Below are positions 1 through 14,396 of a stretch of 15,756 bases of DNA, piece by piece; position 1 is the stretch's first letter; each line of letters opens with the position of its first letter. The position numbers were made by a program, and so were the translations under genes. The stretch lies in IMG/VR virus record IMGVR_UViG_2778261543_000003, positions 1 through 15,756 of that record; one strand, given 5' to 3'. Source of the stretch: a virus. Taxonomy: Duplodnaviria > Heunggongvirae > Uroviricota > Caudoviricetes. Below the pieces are notes generated by a model. That model was not told the origin of the DNA. It saw only the letters and a program-made list of their open reading frames with translations, and did no database searches.

Positions 1-25
1 CACGTTGTTTTTTCGTCAGTGCCAT
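1..25 (-). CDS. 5' end of an ORF running off the window edge (ATG at 25-23)
   Basis: ATG preceded by AAAGGAGAG on the minus strand, overlapping the stop region of the 27-515 gene; only about 8 codons visible. Confidence 0.2.
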
Positions 26-26
26 T

Positions 27-515
27 TCACTCTCCTTTGATGCGAATGCCAGCGGCGCGGATTGCAGCGATGACTTCAGAAACTTTGTATGCCATTACCG
101 TTTGGTAATCATCGTGAAAATCTGTTCGATGAAGCATACTGCTACGTTCCGGGATCAGTATTTCCCGCGCTTCCAGTTCTGCAATGCGCTTCTCTGCGGC
201 TTCCAGCTCAACACGCAGCCTCCCAACCGTAAGCGCAATATCCTCGTTCTCCTGGTCGCGGGATTTGATGTATTGCTGGTTCCTTTCCCGTTCATCCAGT
301 AGTGCCAATGCAATCTTTGGATTAAAGGCAGCAATAAATTCAGCGTTGTTTTTCAGAACGTGTTGCGCAATGGCCTGACTACTTAGTCGGACCTCATAAC
401 CACGTGCGCCACGGTGTGGTTTATATGAGTCCCAGTCTCCCCACGTTGCTTTTTCTGCCGCCTCACGCAGTACCTGATAGTCAATCTTGCTCACTGGTTG
501 CCTCCTTTGCGCCAC
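27..515 (-). CDS. Phage protein with coiled-coil character, possibly Ead/Ea22-like
   Basis: 162-aa ORF in the Ea22-equivalent position distal to the recombination genes; heptad-like [16 protein letters not shown] segment. Family name is from memory only. Confidence 0.55.
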
Positions 516-658
516 ATCGCATTCAGATATTTGTTTTGATTCACTGACGGAAAAGAATTTCTCTTAAGCAATTCCTCTCTCGATGGCATTGGCTTTACGC
601 GTTGGCGAATAATCATTTCTGCCGGAAGAATGCTGGGATTGTATGCAAGTCCTCTCAT
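491..658 (-). CDS. Small hypothetical protein (55 aa, start MRGLAY)
   Basis: ATG at 658 lies 6 nt after GAGGAA; the upstream gene's TGA stop overlaps this RBS. The longer track ORF (to 811) overlaps the upstream gene and is less likely. Confidence 0.35.
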
Positions 659-668
659 GGTAAATTCC

Positions 669-965
669 TCAGTCATTACTGATAGCGCCATAGCGTGAGC
701 GGTAATTACGCAGGCGCGGGTCGATATATTCAGGGAAGTGGGTATATGTGGCTTTGCGGAATGGTCGGATTGATGTCTGGTAAATTCGATCGCGTTCTTC
801 TTTCTCTGCAAGCCATATGCAGTGGCGAAACTCCTTTTCCTCTTTCGTTTCCTGCGGTAGCGACATTATCCGGTCGTAGTTTTTCCTGAATTTATCCAGC
901 ACCTCCGATACGGAATTGCCGGAACAGCGGCGCGCGTCATCCGCACCATACAAAGGCGCTGGCAT
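669..965 (-). CDS. Hypothetical phage protein (98 aa)
   Basis: AGGAG 6 nt upstream of the ATG at 965; tightly packed between the exonuclease and downstream genes on the same strand. Confidence 0.6.
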
Positions 966-981
966 GTTTTTCTCCTGTTGA

Positions 982-1530
982 TTATTTAGCTAACTTTTTC
1001 CAGATCGCTGAAACGTATTTGGCTTGGTGGATGGCATCATCAAGCGCGTTGTGGCGAGTTCCTTTGAATGGCATATCTCGCTTAGGGTTGAATCCTATTA
1101 CCTTTCCAAGCTCGACGATTGTTCTTACGTCGCGGTCATTCCACCACTGCCATGGAACTGGCTGCCCTGTCAGCGAATAACTGTTTCGGAGAATAACGCA
1201 GTCAAATGATGCTCCATTCCCCCAAACCTGAACGAATTTGTGGTTAGCGTTCTTTATGATGAATTCAGATAACCATGAAAGAGCCGTTGAAAGCTCCTGA
1301 GTGTTGCTGGTTAGCGATTTTCTGGCTTCTTCACTCTGTTCCAGCCACCATAAAATCGTTGAAGCGTCAGGACGCGCTCGATATCGCATTGATGATTCAA
1401 GCGAGATATTTACCGAGAACTCTTCTCCTGTTTCTCCGGTATTCGGGTCAAAGAATACCGCCCCAATAGAAATAACTGGCGCGTATGGCCCGTTGCCCAT
1501 TGTTTCAAGGTCAACCATCAAGTGATTCAT
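982..1530 (-). CDS. DEDDh-type 3'-5' exonuclease (DnaQ-like fold)
   Basis: N-terminal MVDLETMG (Exo I D-x-E motif) and C-terminal HNALDDA (Exo III H-x4-D motif); sits directly downstream of SSB. Confidence 0.8.
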   Translation of the reverse strand: MNHLMVDLETMGNGPYAPVISIGAVFFDPNTGETGEEFSVNISLESSMRYRARPDASTILWWLEQSEEARKSLTSNTQELSTALSWLSEFIIKNANHKFVQVWGNGASFDCVILRNSYSLTGQPVPWQWWNDRDVRTIVELGKVIGFNPKRDMPFKGTRHNALDDAIHQAKYVSAIWKKLAK

Positions 1531-1538
1531 GTAAGTCC

Positions 1539-2054
1539 TTAAATTGCGTGAATAGCGTGACGAGGGAAGGGGAGAGTTACTGGTGCAAAGGGGATATCGT
1601 CGTCAAAATCCATAGGTGGTTCGCTGTGATTTCCCTGCTGCTGAGGTTGCTGTCTTTGTTGCTGACCATTATTTCGCTGAGGTGAAGACTGTTCATTGCC
1701 TCCTTGCTTGCCACCAAGCATTTGCATGGTTCCACCAACGCCCACGATGACTTCGGTAGTGAACCGATCCTGTCCGCTTTGATCCTGCCATTTTCTTGTC
1801 CGCAATTTGCCTTCAAGATAAACCTCAGAGCCTTTTCGCAGATATTCGCTGGCAATTTCTGCCAGTTTCCCGCTCATTACCACGCGGTGCCACTCCGTCT
1901 GCTCCTTTTGCTCTCCAGTTTTCTTATCACGCCATTGTTCTGACGTAGCAACGGTAAGGTTTGCAAATGCCGTTCCTGATGGTGAATATCTGATTTCTGG
2001 ATCATGCCCAAGGCGACCAATAATGATCACCTTATTTACGCCTCTGCTTGCCAT
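1539..2054 (-). CDS. ssb: Single-stranded DNA-binding protein with extended C-terminus
   Basis: OB-fold N-terminus closely resembling E. coli SSB ([33 protein letters not shown]), Gly/Gln-rich linker and acidic tip [11 protein letters not shown], followed by 15 extra residues ([15 protein letters not shown]). Confidence 0.9.
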
Positions 2055-2762
2055 TTATGCCGCCTGTTTTAGTTCGTTAACTCTGATGTTCATTACCTGA
2101 ACGCATTTAGCCTGCGCCTCCTCGTTGCCAGCCATTAATTGCCAGTCACGCTGATAACGCTCGATGAGTTTTTTCTTGTCAGTTTCTGTTGACGCATAAT
2201 CGCTGAAGTCTTTCAGGATTTGTTCGCAGTCAACCGATGGAGATTTCTGGTTGGTATTTTCTGGTGATGGTTTGTTATCTGATGCTGGGATTGCCCATCC
2301 CGGCAGCGATGGAGGGAGCCAGTAAAATCCTGTTCCATCCTTGAGTTTTGCCCTGTGCCATCCCTGCTTTTTATCGAGAGATGTTTGTGCGAAACCTTCC
2401 TCAAGGTTATACAGATACCGACCGATTCCCCATTGAACGGCAGCACGCTTCATTGCACCGGAACGACCACCTTTGACGGCTTCTACCTGCGTGTTTTCAG
2501 CAGCATCCCATTTGGTTACCCATTCGGAATCAATCTTGATTGATATGCCGCATTCAACTCCGCCGTTGTTGGGAATATCGCGGTATTCATTGCGCCATCC
2601 TGCTTTGCCGCAAACATCGTCCAGGCGTTTCATGATTGCCCGGTTCGTGGCATAAGCCAGCACCATAGCCCACACTTTGCCATCGCGTGTTTTACCGCTT
2701 TGCTGTATTCGCCATTCGATATCTTCAGGGCTGAATGGCTCATCGAATTTATTCAAATCCAT
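2055..2762 (-). CDS. Rad52-family single-strand annealing protein (Sak-like recombinase)
   Basis: Motif GGRSGAMKRAAVQWGIGRYLYNL resembles the conserved Rad52/Sak hairpin region; gene is adjacent to SSB and an exonuclease; stop TAA abuts the ssb ATG. Confidence 0.65.
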   Translation of the reverse strand: MDLNKFDEPFSPEDIEWRIQQSGKTRDGKVWAMVLAYATNRAIMKRLDDVCGKAGWRNEYRDIPNNGGVECGISIKIDSEWVTKWDAAENTQVEAVKGGRSGAMKRAAVQWGIGRYLYNLEEGFAQTSLDKKQGWHRAKLKDGTGFYWLPPSLPGWAIPASDNKPSPENTNQKSPSVDCEQILKDFSDYASTETDKKKLIERYQRDWQLMAGNEEAQAKCVQVMNIRVNELKQAA

Positions 2763-2770
2763 AATTCACC

Positions 2771-2941
2771 TCAGAATGGACACGGCCCAAGGAAATAACG
2801 CTGATTTAATACTTCGACTCGGGACAAATTAAGGCATACCCGCATTCCTTCGCGGTCGCCATTATGGCGATACCAGAGAGCTTTCTGCGTGTACATGCGT
2901 CTCTGTAACTTGCTCTCCTTCACTGTGGTTGCAAGTGACAT
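2771..2941 (-). CDS. Small hypothetical protein (56 aa, MSLATTVKESK...)
   Basis: Not in the ORF track (under 60 aa). AAGGAGATATTC-ATG RBS; its stop overlaps the RBS of the Rad52-like gene. Confidence 0.35.
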   Translation of the reverse strand: MSLATTVKESKLQRRMYTQKALWYRHNGDREGMRVCLNLSRVEVLNQRYFLGPCPF

Positions 2942-3020
2942 GAATATCTCCTTCGTTACCGATTAATTCTTTCATCTGACGAATGAATTCTTCGTCTGAC
3001 CAGTTATCTGTAAAACTCAT
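2862..3020 (-). CDS. Small hypothetical protein (52 aa, MSFTDNWSDEEFIRQMKELIGNEGD...)
   Basis: ATGA stop/start overlap with the upstream small ORF; overlaps the 2771-2941 ORF in another frame, so at most one of the two may be complete. Confidence 0.25.
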   Translation of the reverse strand: MSFTDNWSDEEFIRQMKELIGNEGDIHVTCNHSEGEQVTETHVHAESSLVSP

Positions 3021-3169
3021 TTCCTGCGATACCATGGAAGGTTGATAGCTGATTTCATCGCTTTATTTGCTTCAAGCCACATTTTTGAATCACCAATAAA
3101 TCTGGCTATTACTGCTTTGTTCTGTGCAGCACGAAGCATCTGGTGATTGATGGCTATTTCATTGCGCAT
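3017..3169 (-). CDS. Small hypothetical protein (50 aa, MRNEIAINHQMLRAAQNKAVIARFIGDSKMW...)
   Basis: GGAGG 6 nt upstream of the ATG at 3169; occupies the kil-equivalent position just upstream of the recombination genes (positional inference only). Confidence 0.4.
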   Translation of the reverse strand: MRNEIAINHQMLRAAQNKAVIARFIGDSKMWLEANKAMKSAINLPWYRRK

Positions 3170-3288
3170 AACGCCTCCAGTTGTTTCTTTGCTGCTCTGA
3201 TTAATTGTTTAACTCGGCGTGATAATTCAGATTCGTGCGGGTAGAAAGCGGACATGACGCCGCTACCCGCGAGCTGAAAGTGCATCAT
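3154..3288 (-). CDS. Small hypothetical protein (44 aa, MMHFQLAGSGVMSAFYPHESELSRR...)
   Basis: TAAGGAG 7 nt upstream of ATGATG at 3288; the track's longer form (start 3363) has no RBS and would abut the upstream stop. Confidence 0.45.
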   Translation of the reverse strand: MMHFQLAGSGVMSAFYPHESELSRRVKQLIRAAKKQLEALCAMK

Positions 3289-3363
3289 GGGTAACTCCTT
3301 ATATTTGATTGCATAACGAAAACGCCTCGAGTGAAGCGTTATTGGTATGCGGTAAAGCCGCAC

Positions 3364-3732
3364 TCAGGCGGCCTTGATCGTCATATCATCTGAATCAAAT
3401 ATTCCTGATGTATCGATATCGGTAATTTTTATTCCTTCACTACCATCCATTGGAGGCCATCCTTCCTGACCATTTCCATCATTCCAGTCGAACTCACACA
3501 CAACACCATATGCATTTAAGTCGCTTGAAATTGCTATAAGCAGAGCATGTTGCGCCAGCATGATTAATACAGCATTTAATACAGAGCCGTGTTTATTTAG
3601 TCGGTATTCAGAGTCTGACCAGAAATTATTAATCTGGTGAAGTTTTTCCTCTGTCATTACGTCATGGTCGATTTCAATTTCTATTGATGCTTTCCAGTCG
3701 TAATCAATGATGTATTTTTTGATGTTTGACAT
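3364..3732 (-). CDS. Strongly acidic hypothetical protein (122 aa)
   Basis: Clean ORF with GAGGAA upstream; by my count about 22 Asp/Glu against about 8 Lys/Arg; lies between the pL-proximal cassette and the recombination module. Confidence 0.7.
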   Translation of the reverse strand: MSNIKKYIIDYDWKASIEIEIDHDVMTEEKLHQINNFWSDSEYRLNKHGSVLNAVLIMLAQHALLIAISSDLNAYGVVCEFDWNDGNGQEGWPPMDGSEGIKITDIDTSGIFDSDDMTIKAA

Positions 3733-3750
3733 CTATTCATTTCCTCATAG

Positions 3751-3778
3751 ATAAAAAATCGCCCTCACATTGGAGGGC
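3751..3778 (-). terminator. Intrinsic terminator (minus strand) between the AT-rich cassette and the acidic-protein gene
   Basis: Plus-strand ataaaaaatc-GCCCTC-acattg-GAGGGC; on the minus strand a 6-bp GC stem followed by a run of 6 U. Confidence 0.6.
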
Positions 3779-3884
3779 AAAGAAGATTTCCAATAATCAG
3801 AACAAGTCGGCTCCTGTTTAGTTACGAGCGACATTGCTCCGTGTATTCACTCGTTGGAATGAATGCACAGTGCTTATTCGCAGT

Positions 3885-4211
3885 CTACATAATCATTCCG
3901 GTTATTATTACCATTTCAATATCACTATCTTTCATAATGATTGGAGTTGAGTTATCAACTTTACTTTTACTCCATTTTCCTGCATCAGTTTTTACCGCTC
4001 CACAATAAGAAAGCCAATCATTATCACAATGTTCTGGATCGCTGATTCTGACAAGAACACGTGATAGTGCTTTTTCGATACTTTCATCACAATTAGCATT
4101 TGTGTAATTGCCGTGAGACAATTTTAAATCGTTAACTTCATCTTCATTGGCATCAAAAATATAGATTTCAGTCGACTCTGGAACATTTTCATAAACCATT
4201 AAAACTTTCAT
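3885..4211 (-). CDS. Acidic hypothetical protein (108 aa, start MKVLMVYENVPE); second gene of AT-rich cassette
   Basis: Start chosen at the ATG at 4211 (GGGGTAAAA-ATG) because the track's longer start at 4331 overlaps the upstream gene; region is visibly AT-rich. Confidence 0.5.
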   Translation of the reverse strand: MKVLMVYENVPESTEIYIFDANEDEVNDLKLSHGNYTNANCDESIEKALSRVLVRISDPEHCDNDWLSYCGAVKTDAGKWSKSKVDNSTPIIMKDSDIEMVIITGMIM

Positions 4212-4257
4212 TTTTACCCCATATTGTTTATGCCAAAAATAAAGTCGGCCATGCGGC

Positions 4258-4728
4258 CTAGTAGAATACCCAATTTTCTGCTTCTTGGTTGTGTCCAAAG
4301 TTATATTCAATATCTGGTGTTGATGTATCAATATTCTTCATCCCATCAACAAGAGTTGATACAACAGCCAAATCTTGTTTGATTCTCATTAAATGGTATT
4401 TCTTCCGGCGCAATAAACTTTCAATGGCAAGTTTCTTCGTTGGGAATGCAAAAGATCTTTCTGCATTTTTTGCTACTTTCTTAATTGCATATCTATTTCT
4501 CCTTTGTTTCCATTCCTGTAACCACTGATTTGGTGCTGGTTTAAAACCAACAACCCAATGCGCAGGAACCAACCATGCATAATGCTCTGTCTGATGAAAA
4601 GCTATATATTGAAGTGCGAATATTTTTATCCCATCTTCTTCAACTGTCGCCTGGAATCTCCAGAAAACAGGCATTCCATCATGTTCAGTTTCTGATTCAG
4701 GAAAAGGTACGCTCCATGATTTTGTCAT
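4258..4728 (-). CDS. Hypothetical protein (156 aa) translationally coupled to N
   Basis: N stop TGA, then GGTGAGAT, then ATG at 4728; AT-rich relative to N; no family recognised. Confidence 0.7.
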   Translation of the reverse strand: MTKSWSVPFPESETEHDGMPVFWRFQATVEEDGIKIFALQYIAFHQTEHYAWLVPAHWVVGFKPAPNQWLQEWKQRRNRYAIKKVAKNAERSFAFPTKKLAIESLLRRKKYHLMRIKQDLAVVSTLVDGMKNIDTSTPDIEYNFGHNQEAENWVFY

Positions 4729-4736
4729 ATCTCACC

Positions 4737-5036
4737 TCAAATAAGTGGTTTGCTGCCTAATTTCATTTTCTGGCGACCAACACAAGTCACACCCATTTCA
4801 CTGCGTGGCTTGCGGTAGTAAATACGATTCTGTTTACTCTCGACTTCTTCTGCCTTCTTGCAGCGAAGGCTTCCGAGTGATGCTGCTTTGTCTGCTCTGA
4901 CGCAACCAGAGAGCTTTAGCGCATTTTTTCGCGCCAGTCGCTGCTCTTGCATTGCCTGTTCACGTTGAGCCTGTCTGCGTGCTCTGCGGCGATTTCTGGC
5001 GTTATCGTCAGCCAGATATGTAATGACTACTGTCAT
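4737..5036 (-). CDS. N: Antitermination protein N
   Basis: Arg-rich N-terminal motif (DDNARNRRRARRQAQREQ) and C-terminus YYRKPRSEMGVTCVGRQKMKLGSKPLI closely matching the lambda N C-terminus as I recall it; GGAGG 7 nt upstream of the ATG at 5036; nutL lies upstream. Confidence 0.75.
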   Translation of the reverse strand: MTVVITYLADDNARNRRRARRQAQREQAMQEQRLARKNALKLSGCVRADKAASLGSLRCKKAEEVESKQNRIYYRKPRSEMGVTCVGRQKMKLGSKPLI

Positions 5037-5076
5037 GTTGACCTCCGGGAAGGTACACATCCTTGTGTGTCGATGA

Positions 5077-5196
5077 TTATTTGTTTTTGCGTTCCCACAT
5101 CCAGTCATCTACTTCAGACCAGATAGTGAAACCGAAGCAGATGGCGAATGTGGTAACTAAACCACCGAGAATTGGGTTGGTCATGATGTCTAACAT
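5077..5196 (-). CDS. Small predicted membrane peptide (39 aa, MLDIMTNPILGGLVTTFAICFGFTIWSEVDDWMWERKNK) in the N leader
   Basis: Not in the ORF track. GAGGAA 6 nt upstream of ATG; one hydrophobic helix plus a charged Trp-rich tail; lies between the leader inverted repeat and N. Confidence 0.35.
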   Translation of the reverse strand: MLDIMTNPILGGLVTTFAICFGFTIWSEVDDWMWERKNK

Positions 5197-5367
5197 TTTC
5201 TGTTCCTCAGATGATTAGCTTTGGTGGTGTGGTAGGTGGGAGACCCATTTCGACCCGCTTCGTCCGACTTCAATTCGGCAATAGTCCCGCAGGCCTCGCC
5301 GCTTTACGTGCGACATATTCCCGTCCATGAACCCTTCACCACACCCCAAAGCCAACTACTCTTTGGT

Positions 5368-5408
5368 TCCCGCATTTCGGCGGGACAATCCCATCAATGT
5401 TAAAGAGC
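5368..5408 (-). promoter_or_regulatory. nutL (boxA GCTCTTTAA plus boxB hairpin)
   Basis: Minus-strand GGCTCTTTAACA ... TCCCGC-cgaaau-GCGGGA; the same arrangement occurs on the plus strand at 7082-7125; boxA matches the lambda CGCTCTTA consensus. Confidence 0.6.
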
Positions 5409-5454
5409 CTGCCAATCTGTTCCGTTTGGCTACCAGCGTCCTGCTGATGGCTTA

Positions 5455-5496
5455 AAGATAACTTAGGTTATAGGTGTGGTCAATAACCTAATTTAT
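5455..5496 (-). promoter_or_regulatory. pL promoter with operators OL1/OL2
   Basis: Minus-strand TTGACC (5483-5478), 17-nt spacer, TATCTT (5460-5455); operator ATAACTTAGGTTAT at 5458-5471 overlaps the -10 and ATAACCTAATTTAT at 5483-5496 overlaps the -35. Confidence 0.55.
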
Positions 5497-5660
5497 ATTT
5501 TGTGGTAAATAAGTTATAAGTGATGGATAACAAAGGTATTTTATTTTTGTAAATGTTGCTGATTGATTGGTGTTTGAGGGCTTGCGTGCGGGGTGAAGGT
5601 GTTACCTTTGGCTTGATGCTTGTCTATGATGATGATGGGTGATTGGGTGGTGAACGGCAG

Positions 5661-5695
5661 GAAAAGAAAACCCGGCGCTGAGGCCGGGTGTTTTT
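5661..5695 (-). terminator. Intrinsic terminator ending the cI operon (potentially bidirectional)
   Basis: CCCGGC-gctgag-GCCGGG stem-loop flanked by a T-run on the plus strand and an A-run (U-run on the minus strand); starts right after the stop of the 5694-5990 gene. Confidence 0.7.
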
Positions 5696-5990
5696 AGTCT
5701 TTTCTTTTGCTTAGCATTTCGTCGATTTCTAAGTCAATACGATATTGATCTATTGCTTTTCTCTCGTTTGGGGTTGGTATTTTATATTGTTCAATTAGAT
5801 CTGTTGTGTATTTTATTTCATCTAATGTGATTTTTATATCAGAGAGAATCTCTTTTATATCAATTAGATGCTCTTCTTCTTTTGCGCGATTAGAGCTATG
5901 TTCAATCATTTGAGATAGCTTTTTACTAATGCTTAGCAAAACAAAAAGAATGATGATCAAAACAACAACAAAAACTATCAGAAATTCCAT
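5694..5990 (-). CDS. AT-rich single-pass membrane protein with coiled-coil-like C-terminal region, cotranscribed with cI
   Basis: GGAGGGATA-ATG RBS 40 nt downstream of the cI stop; hydrophobic N-terminus EFLIVFVVVLIIILFVLLSI, then a charged, periodic Ile/Leu segment; followed by a terminator. Confidence 0.7.
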   Translation of the reverse strand: MEFLIVFVVVLIIILFVLLSISKKLSQMIEHSSNRAKEEEHLIDIKEILSDIKITLDEIKYTTDLIEQYKIPTPNERKAIDQYRIDLEIDEMLSKRKD

Positions 5991-6030
5991 TATCCCTCCG
6001 CACTTCCGTAAGTCTTCTTCTGATTATCGG

Positions 6031-6738
6031 TTACCAACTATGAGACGACCAGAATACTCTGCCAATAATCCTTACGGTTTCATGAAATTCATCTCTATCC
6101 ATTACTTCATCCGGGTACTCTTCGCGATTTATTGATCTGATTATCACCGATGTAGGGGTGGCGATTAATGTTTTTACTCGTAACAAATCAGACTGGCAAA
6201 TAGCGTAGGTTTTACCATCTCTGATTGTGGTATCTTGCGTGTTAACACCAACAACATCGCCATCGTGAAGCGTTGGTTCCATGCTTTGCCCTACAACCCT
6301 AACTAGCTTGGCTGATCTTTCAGATACTCCCATCTTTTTCAGATAGTGCTTTCTGAAAACCAAAGAGAACTCCGATGATTCCTCTAGCTCGCAGCTACCG
6401 CTTCCAGCTGAAAGCGAAACGTTAAGAAGAGGCAACGCAACAAACTCGTCATCGTTTCTTTTAATGTCTTCCCATACCACAGCTTTTAAAGATGACTCAC
6501 GGACATTGGATGGTTCTTCATGTGCACCATCCCTCATTTCACCAATACCAGAACTAAGCCATTCAGGGCGCACTTTTAAAGCATTGGCTAATTCAACCAT
6601 CTTGCGAGATCCGTTTGTTTTACCGGACGACATCTTCTGTATGGCTGGCTGAGATATTCCAACCATGTCAGCAAGCTGTGATTGTGATACCCCTGCCGAG
6701 CTCATGGCTGCATTTAGTCTTTCTGCGAATGTTTTCAT
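6031..6738 (-). CDS. cI: cI-type repressor (HTH plus S24 LexA-like peptidase domain)
   Basis: HTH SQSQLADMVGISQPAIQKM; S24 signature GQSMEPTLHDGDVVGV and a downstream Lys (LRVKTL). Start taken at MKTF (6738) because the longer track start at 6768 would overlap an operator. Confidence 0.85.
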   Translation of the reverse strand: MKTFAERLNAAMSSAGVSQSQLADMVGISQPAIQKMSSGKTNGSRKMVELANALKVRPEWLSSGIGEMRDGAHEEPSNVRESSLKAVVWEDIKRNDDEFVALPLLNVSLSAGSGSCELEESSEFSLVFRKHYLKKMGVSERSAKLVRVVGQSMEPTLHDGDVVGVNTQDTTIRDGKTYAICQSDLLRVKTLIATPTSVIIRSINREEYPDEVMDRDEFHETVRIIGRVFWSSHSW

Positions 6739-6750
6739 ACCCACAAATCT

Positions 6751-6816
6751 ATAACTACGGTTATCCAAAGTAAAATAACAAAGGTTATTGCTATTTTTTA
6801 TAACTTGAGTTATCTT
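6751..6816 (+). promoter_or_regulatory. OR operator triplet with pR (and divergent pRM) region
   Basis: ATAACTACGGTTAT (6751-6764), ATAACAAAGGTTAT (6775-6788) and ATAACTTGAGTTAT (6800-6813) at 24-25 bp spacing; candidate pR -35 TTGCTA (6788-6793) and -10 TATCTT (6811-6816). Confidence 0.6.
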
Positions 6817-6849
6817 TGGTTATAAGTAATGACCACAAGAGGTATGCTC

Positions 6850-7074
6850 ATGAATTTAGTAATTCAACGAGCCTTGAAAATTGTCGGTAGCCAAAAGCGC
6901 CTTGCCGACAAGTGTGGTGTAACGCAGCCAGCAGTACACAAATGGCTGAAAGGCGGGTTGGTCTCTCCAGAGAAAGTTACCGCCATCGTTAACGCCACTG
7001 GAGGGCAGATCAAGGCTTACGAAATTCGCCCCGATTTGCCACACCTGTTTCCAAAACCGAATCAGGCAGCATAA
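6850..7074 (+). CDS. cro: Cro-like HTH regulator (YdaS-like)
   Basis: First rightward gene after OR; AAGAGG 7 nt upstream of the ATG at 6850; HTH SQKRLADKCGVTQPAVHKWLK; C-terminal YEIRPDLPHLFP. Confidence 0.65.
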   Translation: MNLVIQRALKIVGSQKRLADKCGVTQPAVHKWLKGGLVSPEKVTAIVNATGGQIKAYEIRPDLPHLFPKPNQAA

Positions 7075-7081
7075 GTAACAC

Positions 7082-7125
7082 CGCTCTTTAACAGTCATGG
7101 TCCTCATTCCCGCCGAAATGCGGGA
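7082..7125 (+). promoter_or_regulatory. nutR (boxA CGCTCTTTA plus boxB hairpin)
   Basis: CGCTCTTTAACA then TTCCCGC-cgaaau-GCGGGAA between cro and cII; inverted counterpart of nutL. Confidence 0.6.
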
Positions 7126-7183
7126 ATGCAACGCGCATAAGTTGATGCGCATAACTTCTTATTAGTTAAGGAAATACTTACAT

Positions 7184-7462
7184 ATGCAACTTACAAGTAC
7201 TCGCAAGAAAGCGAATGCAATTACAAGCAACATCCTGAATCGAATTGCTGTACGTGGTCAGCGAAAGGTTGCCGACGCGTTAGGGATTAATGAATCGCAA
7301 ATTTCGCGATGGAAAGACAGCTTCATCCCAAAAATGGGAATGCTTCTGGCTGTTCTTGAATGGGGTGTTGAAGACGAGGAGTTGGCGGAACTGGCTAAGA
7401 AAGTAGCCAGAATGCTGACAAAAGAAAAAGCCCCGAAGAACGGCGAATTCTTCGAGGCCTGA
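7184..7462 (+). CDS. cII: Transcriptional activator cII
   Basis: Strong resemblance to lambda cII as I recall it (ILNRIA, SQISRWK, IPKMGMLLAVLEWGV). Confidence 0.85.
   Translation: MQLTSTRKKANAITSNILNRIAVRGQRKVADALGINESQISRWKDSFIPKMGMLLAVLEWGVEDEELAELAKKVARMLTKEKAPKNGEFFEA
7418..7454 (-). terminator. Minus-strand intrinsic terminator inside the cII 3' end (candidate OOP-like antisense RNA terminator)
   Basis: 7-bp stem CGAAGAA/TTCTTCG (7434-7440 with 7448-7454) followed on the minus strand by GGGCUUUUUCUUUU. Confidence 0.45.
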
Positions 7463-7496
7463 TGTAGAAAGACTGGATCAATCCACAGGAGTAATT

Positions 7497-7658
7497 ATGA
7501 CAAAACGTCGTAAGAAATACCAGGAAAAAGAAGAGATTCGACACCCTGATTCACCTGAGGGATTAGTGGTAGCCGCAGCAAATAACAGGGCGTTCGCAGA
7601 GCGCCTTGTTGGTGTTTACAGACTAGCCAAAGCAGGAGTGAAACATGGGCGTCGTTAA
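7497..7658 (+). CDS. Small basic hypothetical protein (53 aa, MTKRRKKYQEKEEIRHPDSPEG...)
   Basis: AGGAG 5 nt upstream of ATG; its 3' end overlaps the O start by 14 nt; not in the ORF track. Confidence 0.35.
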   Translation: MTKRRKKYQEKEEIRHPDSPEGLVVAAANNRAFAERLVGVYRLAKAGVKHGRR

Positions 7659-8466
7659 GTTAGCTGATTACAGGCCTCAACTGGAGGTCGTGGAGCATCG
7701 CGTGGCAGATACCGAAGATGGTTTCATGCGCGTTGCTAACGAGATTACCGACAGTCTGCTGATGGCTGATTTAACCGTCCGGCAGTTGAAGGTGATGCTC
7801 GCTATCATGCGCAAGACATACGGATTCAATAAGCCGATGGATCGACTCACAAACACGCAGATAGCAGCCATGACAGGTATTCATCACACTCATGTTTGCG
7901 CTGCCAAGCGCCAGCTTATTGAGCGTAAATTCCTCATTGCTGATGGCGTGAAAATCGGAGTGAACAAGGTGGTTTCTCAGTGGATTAGCCAGGACAGCTT
8001 AACATTAGCTAAAACAGCTAATAAAACATTAGCCAAGTCGGCTAATGGGTATAAGCCAAGTCAGCTAAACACAAAAGACAATATACAAAAGACAATAAAT
8101 ACAAATACCCCCTTACCCCCTAACGGGGGCGGCGATGGGCAGGTTAAACCTGAACGTCGCAAGGCAGAACGAATCGACTACGAATCCTTCCTGAACGCCT
8201 ACAACACCGAAGTCGGTGACAGACTTCCGCATGCTGTTGCGGTCAACGAGAAACGCAAACGCCGCCTGAAGAAAATCATCCCGCAACTGAAAACGCCAAA
8301 CGTGGACGGTTTCAGAGCGTATGTCAGGGCGTTTGTGCATCAGGCCAAGCCGTTTTACTTCGGAGACAACGACACGGGCTGGACGGCCGATTTTGATTAC
8401 CTGCTGAGGGAAGATTCGTTAACGGGAGTACGGGAAGGGAAGTTTGCAGACAGGGGGATTGCATGA
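7645..8466 (+). CDS. O: Replication initiation protein O
   Basis: N-terminal domain resembles lambda O ([28 protein letters not shown]); AGGAG RBS; iteron-like repeats inside the linker; ATGA overlap with the downstream helicase. Confidence 0.8.
7990..8105 (+). repeat. Candidate replication origin: iteron-like repeats plus AT-rich tract inside O
   Basis: AGCCAAGTCGGCTAA (8031-8045) and AGCCAAGTCAGCTAA (8054-8068), further AGCTAA motifs at about 10-bp phasing, then an A-rich tract with ACAAAAGACAATA repeated. Confidence 0.45.
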
Positions 8467-9839
8467 GACAGGATATCGAAGCGAGCGTTATCGGTGGCCT
8501 GCTGATTGGTGGATTAACACCAACCGCCAGCGACGTTCTGGCAACGCTGGAGCCGGAAGCGTTTTCAATTCCGCTCTACCGGAAAGCCTTCGAGGTTATC
8601 CGCAAGCAGGCGAGAAACAGAAACCTAATCGACGCGCTGATGGTTGCAGAGGCGTGCGGAGAGGAGCATTTCACGTCAATCCTGATGACCAGCAAGAACT
8701 GCCCGAGTGCCGCAAACCTGAAGGGATATGCTGGAATGGTCGCGGATAACTATCACCGCCGTCTGGTGCTGGAAATCATGGACGAAATGCGTGAACCAAT
8801 TCAGAGCGGAACCATCGACGCATCGAGTCAGGCGATGGACGAGCTGGTAAAGCGTCTTTCAGCCATCAGAAAGCCACGTGACGAGGTAAAACCTGTACGG
8901 TTAGGGGAAATCATCACCGACTACACTGACACGCTTGACAGGCGTCTGAGGAACGGAGAAGAGTCAGATACCCTGAAGACCGGAATCGAAGAACTTGACG
9001 CTATCACCGGAGGGATGAACGCTGAAGACCTGGTGATTATCGCCGCTCGTCCTGGTATGGGGAAAACCGAACTGGCGCTAAAGATTGCCGAAGGTGTTGC
9101 AAGCCGCGTTATTCCTGGTTCTGACGTCCGGCGCGGAGTATTGATTTTCTCGATGGAAATGAGCGCATTGCAGATTGCAGAGCGAAGCATTGCCAACGCC
9201 GGGAGGATGTCGGTTAGCGTACTGCGAAATCCTGCATCGATGGATGACGAGGGCTGGGCACGTGTTGCTAACGGCATGAGTCAGCTTGCAGATTTGGATG
9301 TATGGGTAGTCGATGCCTCGCGGTTATCGGTCGAAGAAATACGCTCAATCGCAGAACGGCACAAACAGGAAAATCCAAACCTGTCACTCATCATGGCGGA
9401 TTATCTTGGCCTGATTGAGAAGCCGAAAGCAGATCGCAACGACCTTGCAATTGCTCACATCTCCGGAAGCCTGAAGGCGATGGCGAAAGACCTGAAAACG
9501 CCTGTTATCTCCCTGAGTCAGCTTTCGCGCGATGTTGAGAAGCGACCAAACAAACGCCCGACAAACGCAGATTTGCGTGATTCAGGAAGCATTGAGCAGG
9601 ACGCAGACTCAATCATCATGCTCTATCGGGAAGCGGTATATGACGAGAACAGTAGCGCCGCGCCATTTGCTGAAATCATTGTGACAAAAAACCGTTTTGG
9701 CTCACTTGGTACGGTTTACCAGCGGTTCTGCAACGGACACTTTGTTGCATGTGACCAGGATGAAGCCAGACAGATTTGCACAGCATCAAATGCACCTGCT
9801 GCGCGTGGCAGACGATATGCACAAGGGGCTGACGTATGA
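8463..9839 (+). CDS. DnaB-family replicative DNA helicase
   Basis: DnaB-like N-terminal domain followed by a RecA-type ATPase core with Walker [10 protein letters not shown]; sits directly after O. Confidence 0.9.
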
Positions 9840-9916
9840 CCATCTACATCACTGAGCTGATAGCAGGCCTGCTGGTAATCGCAGGCCTTTTTATTTGGGG
9901 GAGAGGGAAGTCATGA
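9836..9916 (+). CDS. Micro-ORF for a 26-aa hydrophobic peptide ([26 protein letters not shown])
   Basis: ATGA overlaps at both ends (with the helicase stop and the next gene start); could equally be chance. Confidence 0.25.
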
Positions 9917-10095
9917 ATCTGGACGAGCAAGATGCACAAACTATTAGCTCATACATAAGGGCATCAAGACCAGATTACAAAGGTCCGGTATTCGTAGATT
10001 TATCTCGCCTTGAGGAGATTTACATGTGGGAAGCAAAGCTACGTACGCATCTTTTTATTCGTAAGATGACTAGCAACATTACAAAACCAATGTAA
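9913..10095 (+). CDS. Hypothetical protein (60 aa, start MNLDEQ)
   Basis: GGGGGAGAGGGAAG upstream of the internal ATG at 9913; nin-region position. Confidence 0.5.
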   Translation: MNLDEQDAQTISSYIRASRPDYKGPVFVDLSRLEEIYMWEAKLRTHLFIRKMTSNITKPM

Positions 10096-10109
10096 CTGGA
10101 GAGGTGAAT

Positions 10110-10325
10110 ATGAGCACACTCGCAGACCTTATTCATGCCGATATGGCGGAAGATGGAGCAAGGCGTAATAGGTACTGGAAATCATCAAGCCTTCCAGTTT
10201 GTGAAAGATTCAACCACAGGCCAAAACCAAAACGTAGCCGACGAGACAAAGTGTTGAAAAAACTCATGCAAATTAACATGGCTGGTTTTGTCAGATTCGT
10301 GAGTGAAACGACTAACGGGGATTGA
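10110..10325 (+). CDS. Hypothetical basic protein (71 aa)
   Basis: GGAGAGG RBS upstream; same-strand tight packing. Confidence 0.5.
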   Translation: MSTLADLIHADMAEDGARRNRYWKSSSLPVCERFNHRPKPKRSRRDKVLKKLMQINMAGFVRFVSETTNGD

Positions 10326-10326
10326 T

Positions 10327-10593
10327 ATGGACGAATCAAGAAAGCAGTTTGAAGAATGGTTTGAAAATTACACCGGATGTGATCCTAAAAATAAAATATA
10401 CGCCAATATGGTTGAGATGTATTGGCAAGCGTGGCAGGCATCGCGAGCAGCTATCGAGATTGAGTGTCCTGGAAAAAGAGAGCGTGAGGCATTTTCTACC
10501 GATTTCGAGGATGGGGTCACATTTGGTTATAACGACGCAATTAGTGAATGCGAAGGACGGATTCGCGCTGCTGGAGTCAAAGTGAAGGAGTGA
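10327..10593 (+). CDS. Hypothetical protein (88 aa, start MDESRKQFEEW)
   Basis: Start 1 nt after the previous stop; the alternative frame 10322-10585 looks less protein-like. Confidence 0.5.
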   Translation: MDESRKQFEEWFENYTGCDPKNKIYANMVEMYWQAWQASRAAIEIECPGKREREAFSTDFEDGVTFGYNDAISECEGRIRAAGVKVKE

Positions 10594-10595
10594 CG

Positions 10596-11006
10596 ATGAA
10601 GCAAACAATCTTCCTCCGAACTAAGCAACAACAGCAAGCCGCAATCAACGCCATCCTCGCAACACCACTCGATAAAGACAAGCCAGTCACCATCCGCATT
10701 ACTGACTACAAGCGCAACCTTGACCAGAACGCAAAATTTCACGCGATGGTCGCAGATATCGCTAGGCAAGTTCAGTGGCGCGATAAATGGTTAAAACCAG
10801 AACAATGGAAGGTTTTGTTGATCAGCGGTCATGCAGTGGCAACAAAGCAGGAAGCTGATGTTTTGCCCGGGCTTGAAGGCGAATACGTCAACATTCGCGA
10901 AAGCAGCGCGCAGATGAGTGTGAAGCGTATGGCAAGCCTGATTGAGTACACAACAGCCTGGGCTATTGGTCAGGGTGTCAGATTTACTGACAGGAGGTAT
11001 GAATGA
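10596..11006 (+). CDS. ninB: NinB-family recombination protein (Orf-like)
   Basis: AAGGAG RBS upstream of MKQTIF; pattern LDQN.K ... W..KW...E.WK resembles lambda NinB as recalled; followed by NinE/F/G. Confidence 0.75.
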
Positions 11007-11185
11007 GACGACAGCGACGAAGTTTCACCGACATAATCTGCGAAAACTGCAAATACCTTCCAACGAAACGCTCCAGAAATAAACCCAAGCCAATCCCAAA
11101 AGAATCTGACGTAAAAACCTTCAATTACACGGCTCACCTGTGGGATATCCGGTGGCTAAGACATCGTGCGAGGAAAACAAGGTGA
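11003..11185 (+). CDS. ninE: NinE
   Basis: 60-aa protein [23 protein letters not shown]... matching my recollection of lambda NinE; ATGA overlap with the ninB stop. Confidence 0.65.
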
Positions 11186-11352
11186 TTGACCAAAATCGAA
11201 GTTACGAACAAGAAAGTGTCGAGCGAGCTTTAACGTGCGCTAACTGCGGTCAGAAGCTGCATGTGCTGGAAGTTCACGTGTGTGAGCACTGCTGTGCAGA
11301 ATTGATGAGCGATCCGAATAGCTCAATGCACGAGGAAGAAGACGATGGCTAA
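11182..11352 (+). CDS. ninF: NinF (GTG start)
   Basis: [37 protein letters not shown] matches lambda NinF as recalled; GTGA overlap with the ninE stop. Confidence 0.6.
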
Positions 11353-11950
11353 ACCAGCTCGAAGGAAATGCAAAATATGCAAGGAATGGTTTCACCCGGC
11401 ATTCTCAAATCAGTGGTGGTGCTGCCCGGAACACGGAACTCAATTAGCACTCGAACGACGAAGCAAAGAACGCGAAAAAGCGGAAAAAGCAGCAGAGAAG
11501 AAACGACGACGAGAGGAGCAGAAACAGAAAGATAAACTGAAGATTCGAAAACTCGCCTTAAAGCCCCGCAGTTACTGGATTAAACAAGCCCAACAAGCCG
11601 TAAACGCCTTCATCAGAGAAAGAGACCGCGACTTACCATGTATCTCGTGCGGAACGCTCACGTCTGCTCAGTGGGATGCCGGACATTACCGGACAACTGC
11701 TGCGGCACCTCAACTCCGGTTTGATGAGCGCAATATTCACAAGCAATGCGTGGTATGCAACCAGTACAAAAGCGGAAACCTCGTTCCGTATCGTGTCGAA
11801 CTGATTAATCGCATCGGGCAGGAAGCAGTAGAGGAAATCGAATCAAACCATAGCCGCCATCGCTGGACTGTCGAAGAGTGCAAGGCGATCAAGGCAGAGT
11901 ACCAACAGAAACTCAAAGACCTGCGAAACAGCAGAAGTGAGGCCGCATGA
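11345..11950 (+). CDS. ninG: NinG (Rap) recombination protein
   Basis: Near-identity over long stretches to lambda NinG as recalled ([43 protein letters not shown]). Confidence 0.8.
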
Positions 11951-11997
11951 CGTTCTCAGTAAAAACCATTCCAGATCACAAGGGAGAAGCCGCATGA
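11947..11997 (+). pseudogene. ninH: ninH remnant (16 codons, [16 protein letters not shown]) bridging ninG and Q
   Basis: First 10 residues match the lambda NinH start as recalled, then the frame ends after 6 more codons; ATGA overlaps with both ninG and Q. Confidence 0.4.
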
Positions 11998-12512
11998 GCA
12001 TAAGAGAACTAAACCTCACCAAAGAACAGCATGAGTGGCTGAATGGCTGGCTTGAACTGTGGGGCGCATGGGTTTATTCAGGTCGTCTGGAAAAGCGCAT
12101 GAGCAGCGTAATAGCGAAGTTCATGGAGAGCGTAGAGCCGGGAAGAGTTATGACAAGGCCAATGTGCAATGATGATGATGGAATGTTGATTTCTCAGGTC
12201 GTCGATTCCGTCATGTGCATTGACAAGAAAGCCTTTGGCATCCTCCTCAGCTACTACGCTCATGGTTCATCTAAGCGAGCAATTGCATCCTACTATCACG
12301 CGACTGCAAAGCCACGCAAGATGTGTGGACGTGGTGGCGAGGGATGGAGAAAACCTTCACTGGCAACCTGTAGAAACGAAATTGACGACATCCTGAAAGC
12401 GTCGTTATTTGTTTTGTACCAGCCAATGCAAAATGCTTTCAAAATGCGCAAACGTGTTGAGAAAGTTAAGCATGTTGCTGTTAAAAGCCTTGACATGCAA
12501 TTATCCATTTAG
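11994..12512 (+). CDS. Q: Late-gene antiterminator Q-like protein (non-lambda Q type)
   Basis: Occupies the Q position immediately after the nin genes and before the pR'-like promoter, tRNAs and lysis genes; contains Cys/His-rich segments; family assignment from memory only. Confidence 0.6.
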   Translation: MSIRELNLTKEQHEWLNGWLELWGAWVYSGRLEKRMSSVIAKFMESVEPGRVMTRPMCNDDDGMLISQVVDSVMCIDKKAFGILLSYYAHGSSKRAIASYYHATAKPRKMCGRGGEGWRKPSLATCRNEIDDILKASLFVLYQPMQNAFKMRKRVEKVKHVAVKSLDMQLSI

Positions 12513-12519
12513 CCATAAT
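12490..12519 (+). promoter_or_regulatory. Candidate late promoter pR' (overlapping the Q 3' end)
   Basis: Perfect -35 TTGACA (12490-12495), 18-nt spacer, -10 CATAAT (12514-12519). Confidence 0.45.
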
Positions 12520-12533
12520 TAGAAGGTAAGCTG

Positions 12534-12571
12534 CCGTTAGTGACTCTTAAGTTGCAACGGTGGCTTTTTTT
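12534..12571 (+). terminator. Possible tR'-like terminator (non-canonical)
   Basis: CCGTT ... AACGG stem with a large 17-nt loop followed by a run of 7 T; structure is weak. Confidence 0.3.
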
Positions 12572-12575
12572 ATTT

Positions 12576-12650
12576 GGGTCAGTCGTATAAAGGTCATTAC
12601 GGAAGGCTGTTAACCTTCTTATCGTGGTTCGAGTCAACGCTGTCCCGCCA
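12576..12650 (+). tRNA. tRNA-Asn-like (anticodon GUU), possibly degenerate
   Basis: Cloverleaf foldable by hand: anticodon arm GAAGG-CTGTTAA-CCTTC, T-loop TTCGAGT, 3' CCA; but one acceptor mismatch, one T-stem mismatch and an odd D-arm. Confidence 0.4.
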
Positions 12651-12655
12651 AATAT

Positions 12656-12731
12656 GCTGGTTTAGCTCCAATGGTAGAGCAGTCGCCTTGTAAGCGAATG
12701 GGTAGCGGTTCAAGTCCGTTAACCAGCACCA
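12656..12731 (+). tRNA. tRNA-Thr (anticodon UGU)
   Basis: 76 nt; perfect 7-bp acceptor stem GCTGGTT/AACCAGC, D-stem GCTC/GAGC with GG in loop, anticodon loop CTTGTAA, T-loop TTCAAGT, 3' ACCA. Confidence 0.75.
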
Positions 12732-12974
12732 TAACTGAGCCGTAGCCACTGGCTATCCTGAATTCATCAGTGATAGTTATGCTGCGGCCTTCTGCACATG
12801 ACCTTCGTGAAAGCGGGTGGCAAGAGGCTGCGCTAACAACCTCCTGCCGTTTTGCCCGTGCATATCGGTCACGAACAAATCTGATTACTAAACACAGTAT
12901 CCTGGATTTGTTCTATCAGTAATCGACTTTATTCCTAACTAAATAGAGCAAATCCCCTTATTTGGGGGTAAGAC

Positions 12975-13298
12975 ATGAAGATGCCAGAAAAACATGACCT
13001 GTTAGCCGCCATTCTCGCGGCAAAGGAACAAGGCATCGGGGCAATCCTTGCGTTTGCAATGGCGTACCTTCGCGGCAGATATAATGGCGGTGCGTTTACA
13101 AAAACAGTAATCGACGCAACGATGTGCGCCATTATCGCCTGGTTCATTCGTGACCTTCTCGACTTCGCCGGACTAAGTAGCAATCTCGCTTATATAACGA
13201 GCGTGTTCATCGGCTACATCGGTACTGACTCGATTGGTTCGCTTATCAAACGCTTCGCTGCTAAAAAAGCCGGAGTAGAAGATGGTGGAAATCAATAA
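12975..13298 (+). CDS. S: Holin (lambda S type, dual-start MKM)
   Basis: Essentially the lambda S sequence as recalled ([39 protein letters not shown]...). Confidence 0.9.
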
Positions 13299-13758
13299 TC
13301 AACGTAAGGCGTTCCTCGATATGCTGGCGTGGTCAGAGGGAACTGATAACGGACGACAGAAAACCAGAAATCATGGTTATGACGTCATTGTTGGCGGAGA
13401 GCTATTCACTGATTACTCCGATCACCCTCGCAAACTTGTCACGCTAAACCCCAAACTCAAATCAACAGCCGCCGGACGTTACCAGCTTCTTTCCCGTTGG
13501 TGGGATGCCTATCGTAAGCAGCTTGGCCTGAAAGATTTCTCTCCGAAAAGCCAGGACGCTGTGGCATTGCAGCAGATTAAAGAGCGTGGTGCTTTACCGA
13601 TGATTGATCGCGGTGATATCCGTCAGGCAATCGACCGCTGCAGCAATATCTGGGCTTCACTGCCGGGTGCTGGTTATGGCCAGTTCGAGCATAAGGCTGA
13701 CAGCCTGATTGCAAAATTCAAAGAGGCTGGCGGAGCGGTCAGAGAGATTGAGGTATGA
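13282..13758 (+). CDS. R: Endolysin (lambda R-type lytic transglycosylase)
   Basis: Matches lambda R as recalled ([39 protein letters not shown]). Confidence 0.9.
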
Positions 13759-14362: not shown

Positions 14363-14396
14363 GATAAGAGCCAGTCATCACAAACACCAGGATTTA

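Follow-up and report, generated by a model that had tools for sequence, protein, structure and literature searches.

An ES18/epsilon34-type phage recombination module with an optional DEDDh exonuclease gene

Recombineering is built on phage annealing systems, of which, to our knowledge, every characterised one depends on 5'-3' resection, carried out either by a nuclease of its own or by redirected RecBCD. The locus analysed here raises the question of whether a nuclease of 3'-5' type could take part in such a system. In the window (the whole stretch of 15,756 nucleotides, positions 1 to 15,756 of the IMG/VR record IMGVR_UViG_2778261543_000003), the genes for a Rad52/Sak-like annealase and an SSB are followed by a gene for a predicted DEDDh exonuclease, a set that a first-pass annotation had taken to imply a mechanistically different recombination pathway. 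Participation of a 3'-5' DEDDh nuclease, if true, would alter the textbook scheme, and annealase, SSB, and nuclease together might then make up a portable kit for use in bacteria in which lambda Red does not work.

Table 1. Coordinates of the module genes, their subregions, and the neighbouring small ORFs in the window
Feature	Position	Strand	Length	Remarks
Annealase gene	2762..2055	(-)	235 aa	
Annealase N-terminal core	2295..2762	(-)	codons 1-156	Sak/Rad52-type single-strand annealing domain (predicted)
Annealase C-terminal domain	2055..2294	(-)	codons 157-235 + stop	P22 Erf-type tail
ssb	2054..1539	(-)	171 aa	phage, E. coli-like OB-fold protein
SSB extension	1542..1586	(-)	15 codons	behind the acidic tip DFDDDIPF (1587..1610), which is normally terminal
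DEDDh exonuclease gene	1530..982	(-)	182 aa	
abc2	965..669	(-)		fourth module gene, same strand
Small ORF	2862..3035	(-)	57 aa	kil/annealase interval, overlaps next ORF; phrog_2123, 141.6 bits
Small ORF	2771..2941	(-)	56 aa	immediately 5' of annealase; phrog_1723, 122.5 bits; HK97 gp42/Sf6 gp29 family

The three open reading frames of that annotation are confirmed on the minus strand, and so is the tight coupling that it had described (Table 1). The annealase TAA (2057..2055) immediately adjoins the ssb ATG (2054..2052), 8 bases (GGACTTAC) lie between the ssb stop codon and the exonuclease ATG, and 16 bases separate the exonuclease gene from abc2, the module spacers being therefore 0, 8, and 16 bases with every gene on a single strand. 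A consensus scan for promoters and terminators inside the module that would uncouple the genes gives a count not above that of shuffled sequence. Judging from this arrangement, the module genes form a single predicted transcription unit, with kil, cIII, a cI-type repressor gene, cro, and cII nearby. No Chi site is found in the window, though only 0.38 would be expected.

The annealase matches the Pfam profile PF04098 (Rad52_Rad22) with 89.2 bits (cut-off 20.3) over residues 4-136, and its core is 59% identical over 155 aa (E 1e-66) to Sak (ORF252) of Lactococcus phage ul36; because of this score and this identity, the family of the protein is taken as settled. Sak itself was reportedly characterised biochemically by Ploquin et al. 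in 2008. The likeness to P22 Erf is limited to residues 157-235 of the annealase, where 63% identity over 79 aa is observed with Erf residues 134-205, and the Pfam search gives no match of the annealase to PF04404 (ERF), an ERF-type N-terminal core being absent. By these comparisons, the annealase is a chimera of a Sak core and a P22 Erf C-terminal domain, and the PHROG and GenBank label 'Erf-like' mirrors the common tail only. The Erf-type tail is retained in Sak-type proteins of Pectobacterium and Erf-type proteins of Pantoea, and it is presumed to be a partner-binding domain by analogy with the C-terminal domain of Red-beta (PMC6393309). The single-sequence AlphaFold model of the annealase (pLDDT 44) is unusable for its fold, the sequence comparison with solved structures returns spurious WW-domain matches only, and NCBIfam holds no model matching either the annealase or the exonuclease.

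The SSB is recognised by PF00436 (130 bits) and TIGR00621 (183 bits) in profile searches, and it matches solved SSB structures with an E-value of 4.5e-66. The acidic tip (DDDIPF) is present, but not at the very C-terminus, where its free carboxylate would serve the binding of partners, 15 residues lying beyond it. In HK620, the SSB boosts annealing via its last six residues (PMC5928155); an SSB with a buried acidic tip may not function like this protein or like E. coli SSB. The 15-residue tail is also found in mEp235, in HK75, and in more than 55 IMG/VR loci, and it is missing from the exonuclease-adjoining SSBs of other genera. An origin of the tail as the scar of a deleted HNH gene was considered and is probably not correct, because HNH homologues are found elsewhere without the tail, which therefore belongs to the ssb locus.

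For the third protein, the Pfam search identifies PF16473 (Rv2179c-like) with 245.9 bits, and profile searches, with scores far above chance, thus uphold the Rad52/Sak-like, SSB, and DnaQ-like family calls first made for the three products. Across 33 homologues (56-87% identity), the DEDDh residues D7, E9, D110, H160, and D165 do not vary. The AlphaFold model (pLDDT 93.2) predicts a DnaQ-like fold, whose best match in the PDB is T4 DexA (8KEN, TM 0.80), followed by RNase T, Cap18, REXO2, and RNase AS; DexA is also detected by sequence (8KEL/8KEN, E 9e-14). A 3'-5' polarity is predicted from the family only, and so is the nature of the substrate (DNA or RNA, single- or double-stranded). The fold and the DEDDh catalytic residues are common to T4 DexA, of 25-31% identity, which differs in having extra loops and in being a lytic-phage protein. 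They are also common to EcD ('HREX') of E. coli, whose sequence was recovered from IMG/VR via its cloning primer (189 aa, MIDTET start, A78). An identification of the exonuclease with this published defence nuclease was rejected, since the two are 37-39% identical and the genomic context is another one, EcD sitting in a P2-like prophage whereas the window exonuclease sits in a Rec module.

Such a gene set has already been described. Zheng, Casjens, Davidson, Amundsen, and Smith (Genome Res 2025) report DnaQ-like 3'-5' nucleases in lambdoid Rec modules, with epsilon34 named (PMC12315714), and their 'ES18 type' consists of an anti-RecBCD protein, an SSB, a nuclease, and an annealing protein, the nuclease of epsilon34 being DnaQ-like. 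The window module fits this ES18/epsilon34 functional type in gene order, in context, and in its near-identity to mEp235 and epsilon34; the four functions, their order, and the operon position are shared, and nothing material differs. DNA identity is 86% to epsilon34 genes 36-35-34-33, 91% to mEp235, and 98% to CurroJimenez_Bas106. The gene combination is known from GenBank/RefSeq entries (mEp235, epsilon34, and E. coli prophages) as well as from PMC12315714, the window containing one more copy of a well-known module in a variant already documented. The shuffling of partner domains and the SSB tail lie outside the analysis of that paper.

Other systems share part of this organisation. In P22, the order arf-erf-abc1-abc2 comes after kil as the window module does, Abc2 is 91% identical, and Erf has the tail described above; however, the P22 core is ERF (PF04404) whereas that of the window is of Sak/Rad52 type (PF04098), abc1 is replaced in the window by ssb and the exonuclease gene, and arf by two unrelated small ORFs. 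Lambda Red (exo-bet-gam) is similar in its PL-operon location, its Rad52-superfamily annealing protein, and its RecBCD-acting protein, but it has a 5'-3' exonuclease of its own and a Gam that blocks RecBCD, whereas in the window Abc2 would redirect RecBCD, an SSB is added, and the predicted 3'-5' DEDDh nuclease is optional. The hkaM-sak4-ssb-abc2 genes of HK620 (Hutinet et al. 2018, PMC5928155) show the same order of annealing protein, SSB, and Abc2; in this case, the annealase is RecA-like, the SSB is non-homologous to that of the window, in which the tip is non-terminal, and there is no exonuclease. Lactococcus phage ul36, besides its Sak, also has ssb (ORF141) immediately after it, but differs in the C-terminal region, in having neither exonuclease nor Abc2, and in its Gram-positive host.

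The fourth gene is informative regarding the origin of single strands. Abc2 is identified by PF11043 (202.1 bits) and phrog_656 in profile searches, and is 90.8% identical to P22 Abc2; the role described for it is the conversion of RecBCD to a 5'-3' exonuclease by which ends are readied for recombination (PMC5928155; PMC12315714). Its presence in the module would therefore provide a source of 3' tails without the DEDDh enzyme. Neither the module nor the stretch of the PL operon visible in the window contains a 5'-3' exonuclease gene (lambda Exo or RecE); the operon runs on past the left end of the window.

The exonuclease gene, for its part, behaves as a clean cassette. Comparison with HK75 shows it bounded by the ssb stop codon on one side and by the ribosome-binding site of abc2 on the other, the junction being TAA followed by TCAGGAGAAAAACATG in HK75 and TAA, GGACTTAC, the exonuclease gene, TAA, and TCAACAGGAGAAAAACATG in the window. 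The full 2-kb stretch is present in 140 E. coli genomes, compared with 392 that have the annealase gene (about 36%), and in phage records the exonuclease (at least 80% identity) occurs in 13 against 92 for the annealase (14%). Near-identical modules without the gene are those of HK75, ECP1, and Sf6, and ES18-like modules likewise do without it. The exonuclease is an optional part of the module; the mechanistically different pathway proposed in the first-pass annotation is not supported, since Abc2 adjoins the exonuclease and the HK75, ECP1, and Sf6 modules work in its absence.

Presence or absence as a cassette would also agree with the gene being cargo at a permissive boundary, unrelated to recombination and serving either 'HREX' defence against, or exclusion of, phages with modified DNA or a DexA-like scavenging of nucleotides. 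An HNH homing-endonuclease gene is found at this same boundary, and more distant homologues of the exonuclease (61-63%) adjoin xis/int, away from any annealase. Moreover, 5hmC DNA is degraded by EcD, a homologue of DexA from E. coli, and plasmid-borne expression of EcD confers protection from T4 (PMC12153337). However, the modest identity to EcD and the location of the latter in a P2-like prophage early region, instead of a Rec module, weaken the parallel, and DexA D169, proposed as the 5hmC reader (PMC12153337), falls on G146/F147 in the pairwise alignment, with no acidic counterpart. Also, PADLOC yields weak generic DEDDh matches only, the placement after ssb is kept at identities as low as 66% and with different annealase families, and the scan gives no separate exonuclease promoter above chance level. 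With this result, and with PL repressed in the lysogen, a prophage-encoded defence role would be unlikely, and we regard the cargo explanation as a whole as unlikely.

The surroundings of the gene are well conserved among its relatives. All 80 close relatives kept from IMG/VR fit the order annealase-SSB-(HNH)-exonuclease-Abc2, which is complete in 72 of the 80, the incomplete ones ending at contig ends, and Abc2 comes after the exonuclease in every locus with enough flank. Homologues of 66-81% identity are located directly after ssb in Rad52/Sak-, Erf-, and Sak4-based modules. Annealase, SSB, and exonuclease are a real and recurrent unit; in this respect the three-gene module initially described holds, although its fourth gene, abc2, had been missed. 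The recurrence after ssb in Sak, Erf, and Sak4 modules makes a recombination-linked role in 3'-end processing plausible. Exonuclease-bearing modules of Pantoea, Pectobacterium, Photorhabdus, and Providencia have neither Abc2 nor a 5'-3' nuclease, and their source of single strands would be left unexplained by Abc2-dependent resection.

A stronger claim would be that the DEDDh enzyme is itself the resection nuclease, with reversed polarity: it would chew the 3' strands, the SSB-coated 5' tails would be annealed by the Sak-type protein, and the recessed 3' ends would be extended afterwards, as in chew-back cloning. In vivo cloning in E. coli needs a 3'-5' exonuclease (ExoIII). Such a polarity is favoured by the annealase-SSB-exonuclease order, kept across Rad52-type, Erf, and Sak4 annealases while the SSB type also varies, by the diverged modules just mentioned, and by an 823-aa lambdoid-prophage protein with the same DEDDh domain exactly where RecE has its 5'-3' nuclease domain. 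Nonetheless, Abc2 is present in the window, about two thirds of the near-identical modules lack the exonuclease, viable phages such as Sf6 and HK75 included, and the characterised relatives act preferentially on single-stranded DNA, duplex being a poorer substrate for DexA and, when unmodified, not attacked by EcD at 25 degrees C (PMC12153337); resection of reversed polarity seems quite improbable here. A slim chance is also given to the exonuclease being a dedicated end-processing nuclease in an SSB-linked, RecBCD-independent annealing pathway of Sak-, Erf-, and Sak4-based modules, be it through reversed-polarity resection (5' tails) or through obligatory 3'-end trimming. If true, phage recombination nucleases would then fall into three classes, of which lambda Exo/RecE and hijacked RecBCD are the other two.

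The interpretation that we favour, and consider probable, is that the window contains the PL-operon Rec module of a lambda/P22-like E. coli prophage, in which resection depends on Abc2 and the exonuclease is accessory. A pathway of P22 type is proposed because of the Erf-type C-terminal domain and the P22-like gene order. All module genes would be co-transcribed early upon infection or induction; host RecBCD bound by Abc2 would then unwind the ends, strip the 5' strand, and ignore Chi, leaving 3' single strands that the phage SSB would cover. The annealase would pair complementary strands through its ring-forming core of Sak/Rad52 fold, with the Erf-type tail presumably docking a partner, and annealing would circularise the terminally redundant genome and feed recombination-dependent replication. 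The DexA-like exonuclease would be a dispensable accessory and not the resection nuclease.

By analogy with T4 DexA, the most likely job of this accessory enzyme would be to trim 3' single-stranded ends or flaps on SSB-coated DNA. Against this, circularising a terminally redundant genome by annealing requires no removal of 3' flaps. As precedents, T4 intron homing, in which double-strand breaks are repaired, involves DexA (PMC2988022), and RNase T is reported to trim DNA 3' ends in repair (PMC3942315). Also against such a role, exonucleases that digest single strands 3'-5' tend to reduce recombination, since they destroy the 3' tails (PMC12315714). The puzzle is then that many Rec modules retain, directly after ssb, a nuclease of a type whose normal effect is the loss of recombinogenic 3' tails.

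Finally, two small ORFs lie between kil and the annealase gene (Table 1). The 57-aa ORF occupies the place of arf in P22, and P22-type arf substitutes for it in 5 IMG/VR loci. It was considered as a homologue of P22 Arf; the similarity is confined to 17 residues around an SDEEFI stretch (47% over 17 aa, E 0.006 pairwise), and the ORF would be a putative positional analogue only. The 56-aa ORF is annotated as "hypothetical protein" in mEp235 and Sf6, and it is found in most related loci.

The window covers the early genes of an E. coli prophage of the lambda/P22 kind. Its plus strand carries cro, cII, replication O, a DnaB-type helicase, ninB, ninG, Q and the lysis genes; its minus strand encodes a cI-type repressor and has the PL operon, with cIII and kil among its genes. 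The three ORFs reported by the first-pass annotation as an annealase, an SSB and a DEDDh 3'-5' exonuclease are present on the minus strand at the coordinates that it gave, and the annealase stop codon TAA directly abuts the ssb ATG, as it had stated. Its family calls also hold in profile searches, which match the annealase to PF04098 (Rad52_Rad22, 89 bits against a cut-off of 20), the SSB to PF00436 (130 bits) and the exonuclease to PF16473 (Rv2179c-like, 246 bits, the RNase_T match being weak). A fourth gene of the module, abc2, was overlooked. The gap between ssb and the exonuclease gene is 8 bases, and that between the exonuclease gene and abc2, on the same strand, is 16 bases. Upstream of the annealase gene, two small ORFs sit where P22 has arf, their similarity to Arf spanning just 17 residues; they share 80 bases (2862..2941, minus strand), read in different frames, belong to separate PHROG families and are each annotated in mEp235 and Sf6.

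Features of the window discussed in the text
Feature	Position	Strand	Description
Annealase	2762..2055	minus	235 aa, in PL operon
SSB	2054..1539	minus	171 aa, in PL operon
Exonuclease	1530..982	minus	182 aa, in PL operon
Abc2	965..669	minus	PF11043, 202 bits; 90.8% identity to P22 Abc2
Small ORF	2862..3035	minus	phrog_2123
Small ORF	2771..2941	minus	phrog_1723
ninB	10548..11006	plus	family of lambda Orf
ninG	11345..11950	plus	family of lambda Rap
Low-GC ORF	3885..4331		no family match
Low-GC ORF	4258..4728		no family match
Low-GC ORF	5694..5990		no family match

As a description, this gene combination is already known, since the same four genes are annotated with the same functions in GenBank/RefSeq (mEp235, mEpX2, epsilon34, g341c and many E. 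coli prophages), and an analysis of 325 lambdoid phages (Zheng, Casjens, Davidson, Amundsen and Smith, Genome Res 2025, PMC12315714) includes among its Rec-module types one with an anti-RecBCD protein, an SSB, a nuclease and an annealing protein (25 phages), naming the epsilon34 DnaQ gene a very likely legitimate module member. The novelty claimed earlier is thus not borne out, and the remaining interest, low to moderate, rests on the role of the predicted exonuclease in the module.

The solved structure of T4 DexA (8KEL/8KEN) is reached from the exonuclease by sequence (E 9e-14), and a structure model built on 33 homologues (pLDDT 93) has DexA as its best structural match (TM 0.80), followed by RNase T, Cap18, REXO2 and RNase AS. 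Residues D7, E9, D110, H160 and D165 are invariant among the 33 homologues and correspond to the active-site residues of DexA and the epsilon subunit given in PMC12153337.

Sequence comparison shows the exonuclease gene to be an optional cassette. After ssb, HK75 reads TAA / TCAGGAGAAAAACATG(abc2), and the window reads TAA / GGACTTAC-ATG..exo..TAA / TCAACAGGAGAAAAACATG(abc2). Annealase, ssb and abc2 near-identical to those of the window are found without the exonuclease gene in Sf6, IME10, ECP1, HK75 and N7, an HNH gene taking its place in Sf6. In a set of 5,426 complete E. coli genomes, the annealase gene occurs in 392, the exonuclease gene in 152 and the whole 2-kb stretch in 140 (about 36% of the 392); in the phage collection, the annealase is found in 92 records and the exonuclease in 13 (about 14%), both counted at a protein identity of 80% or more. 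Because the recombination system of Sf6 and HK75 works without this gene, the system cannot depend on it.

According to PMC5928155, Abc2 hijacks RecBCD, converting it into a 5'-3' exonuclease that readies ends for recombination; Abc2 binds RecC and blocks the Chi response (PMC12315714). Abc2 thus provides the module with a source of 3' single strands, and no reversed polarity has to be assumed. With this source present and the exonuclease optional, the mechanistically different pathway proposed by the first-pass annotation is an overdrawn inference. Both points also count against resection of reversed polarity by the exonuclease, as does the preference of its characterised relatives for single strands, making this reading very unlikely. 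Of three readings, the most likely is that the exonuclease would have an accessory role, trimming 3' ends within a P22-type annealing pathway driven by Abc2 and RecBCD. DexA contributes to double-strand-break repair in T4 intron homing (PMC2988022), and RNase T is described as trimming DNA 3' ends during repair (PMC3942315).

The remaining reading, in which the exonuclease is cargo without a recombination role, is unlikely, given that a consensus scan found no exonuclease promoter beyond chance level, that the PL operon would be silent in lysogens and that EcD, the E. coli homologue published as an anti-T4 defence exonuclease, is a different protein. Located by its cloning primer in the compared locus L122 (5679..6269, minus strand), and also in L104, L109, L119, L120 and L125, EcD lies in the early region of a P2-like prophage with the order Cox-like (a weak, sub-threshold match), DUF4761, DUF4754, EcD, ParE-like gene and Dam, a prophage origin that goes unmentioned in the EcD paper (PMC12153337). 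From this context and an identity of 37-39%, EcD was rejected as the identity of the exonuclease.

The position of the exonuclease gene is not random. The closest relatives retained from IMG/VR number 80 (88-100% identity); 72 of them show the order annealase-SSB-(HNH)-exo-Abc2 and the other 8 a truncated subset of it. More telling are diverged homologues, placed directly after ssb in modules with differing upstream annealases, these being ERF in Pantoea/Mixta (81% identity to the window exonuclease) and in a metagenomic contig (P0027, 70%), Rad52_Rad22 in Pectobacterium (74%), and Sak4-like in Photorhabdus (68%) and Providencia (66%). The SSB of the Sak4-based modules is of the non-homologous phrog_743 type, and no Abc2 follows the exonuclease in any of these modules. 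Homologues at 61-63% identity adjoin xis/int, with no annealase nearby. The same surroundings are seen for the gene of an 823-aa 'exodeoxyribonuclease VIII' of lambdoid prophages (mEp460_ev081, 1578..4049), whose residues 262-625 align with 278-591 of Rac RecE, very tightly over the zinc-ribbon stretch, and are followed by a DexA-like DEDDh domain (residues 642-813). The 5'-3' nuclease domain of RecE presumably starts just past residue 591, which would put the DEDDh domain in the matching place. The placement of the close relatives and of the diverged homologues after ssb, together with this RecE-like protein, keeps a recombination-linked role alive.

The annealase is a chimera of a Sak-type core and a P22 Erf-type C-terminal end. 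Residues 6-159 share 59% identity with Sak (ORF252) of Lactococcus phage ul36, a query protein in a study of Rad52-like phage recombinases (PMC2896510), and in ul36, as in the window, the ssb gene comes next. Residues 157-235 share 63% identity with the C-terminal end of P22 Erf, and a profile search gave no ERF-core match to the annealase, a composition that explains the database label 'Erf-like'. The C-terminal domain of Red-beta is described as binding lambda Exo and SSB (PMC6393309), and we infer that the annealase tail may be a partner-docking domain.

The acidic tip of the SSB, DFDDDIPF, is not terminal, with 15 residues beyond it; tip and tail together span 1542..1610 (minus strand). 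This tail is kept in mEp235, HK75 and more than 55 IMG/VR loci; exonuclease-adjacent SSBs of Pectobacterium, Pantoea and others end in ...DIPF without it. The partners of E. coli SSB require its terminal Phe to be free, so with its tip buried the window SSB may be unable to engage the host SSB interactome. An HNH gene has been inserted right behind the ...DIPF codon of ssb in Sf6 (3080..3559) and in 15 of the 80 loci from IMG/VR, its ORF running into the tail that otherwise ends the SSB. Alignments with HNH homologues elsewhere end at about residue 140 of 159, so the tail is part of the ssb locus. The HNH gene appears to be a free-standing homing endonuclease that, by inserting here, leaves the SSB with a canonical free tip.

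The PR operon holds two more recombination genes, ninB and ninG, so the recombination equipment of the phage extends beyond the PL module. Two stretches of the window (3500..4700 and 5500..6000) have a GC of 0.36-0.40, against about 0.48 elsewhere, and the ORFs in them, located between N and cIII and beside the repressor, were probably acquired as accessory genes. Finally, two assemblies bearing the label 'E. coli DH5alpha' (4.83 Mb; NZ_CP026085.1 and NZ_CM135829.1) carry the prophage module at 98.9% identity, and so does E. coli W; the module would not be expected in a K-12 derivative, and the two assemblies may be mislabelled.
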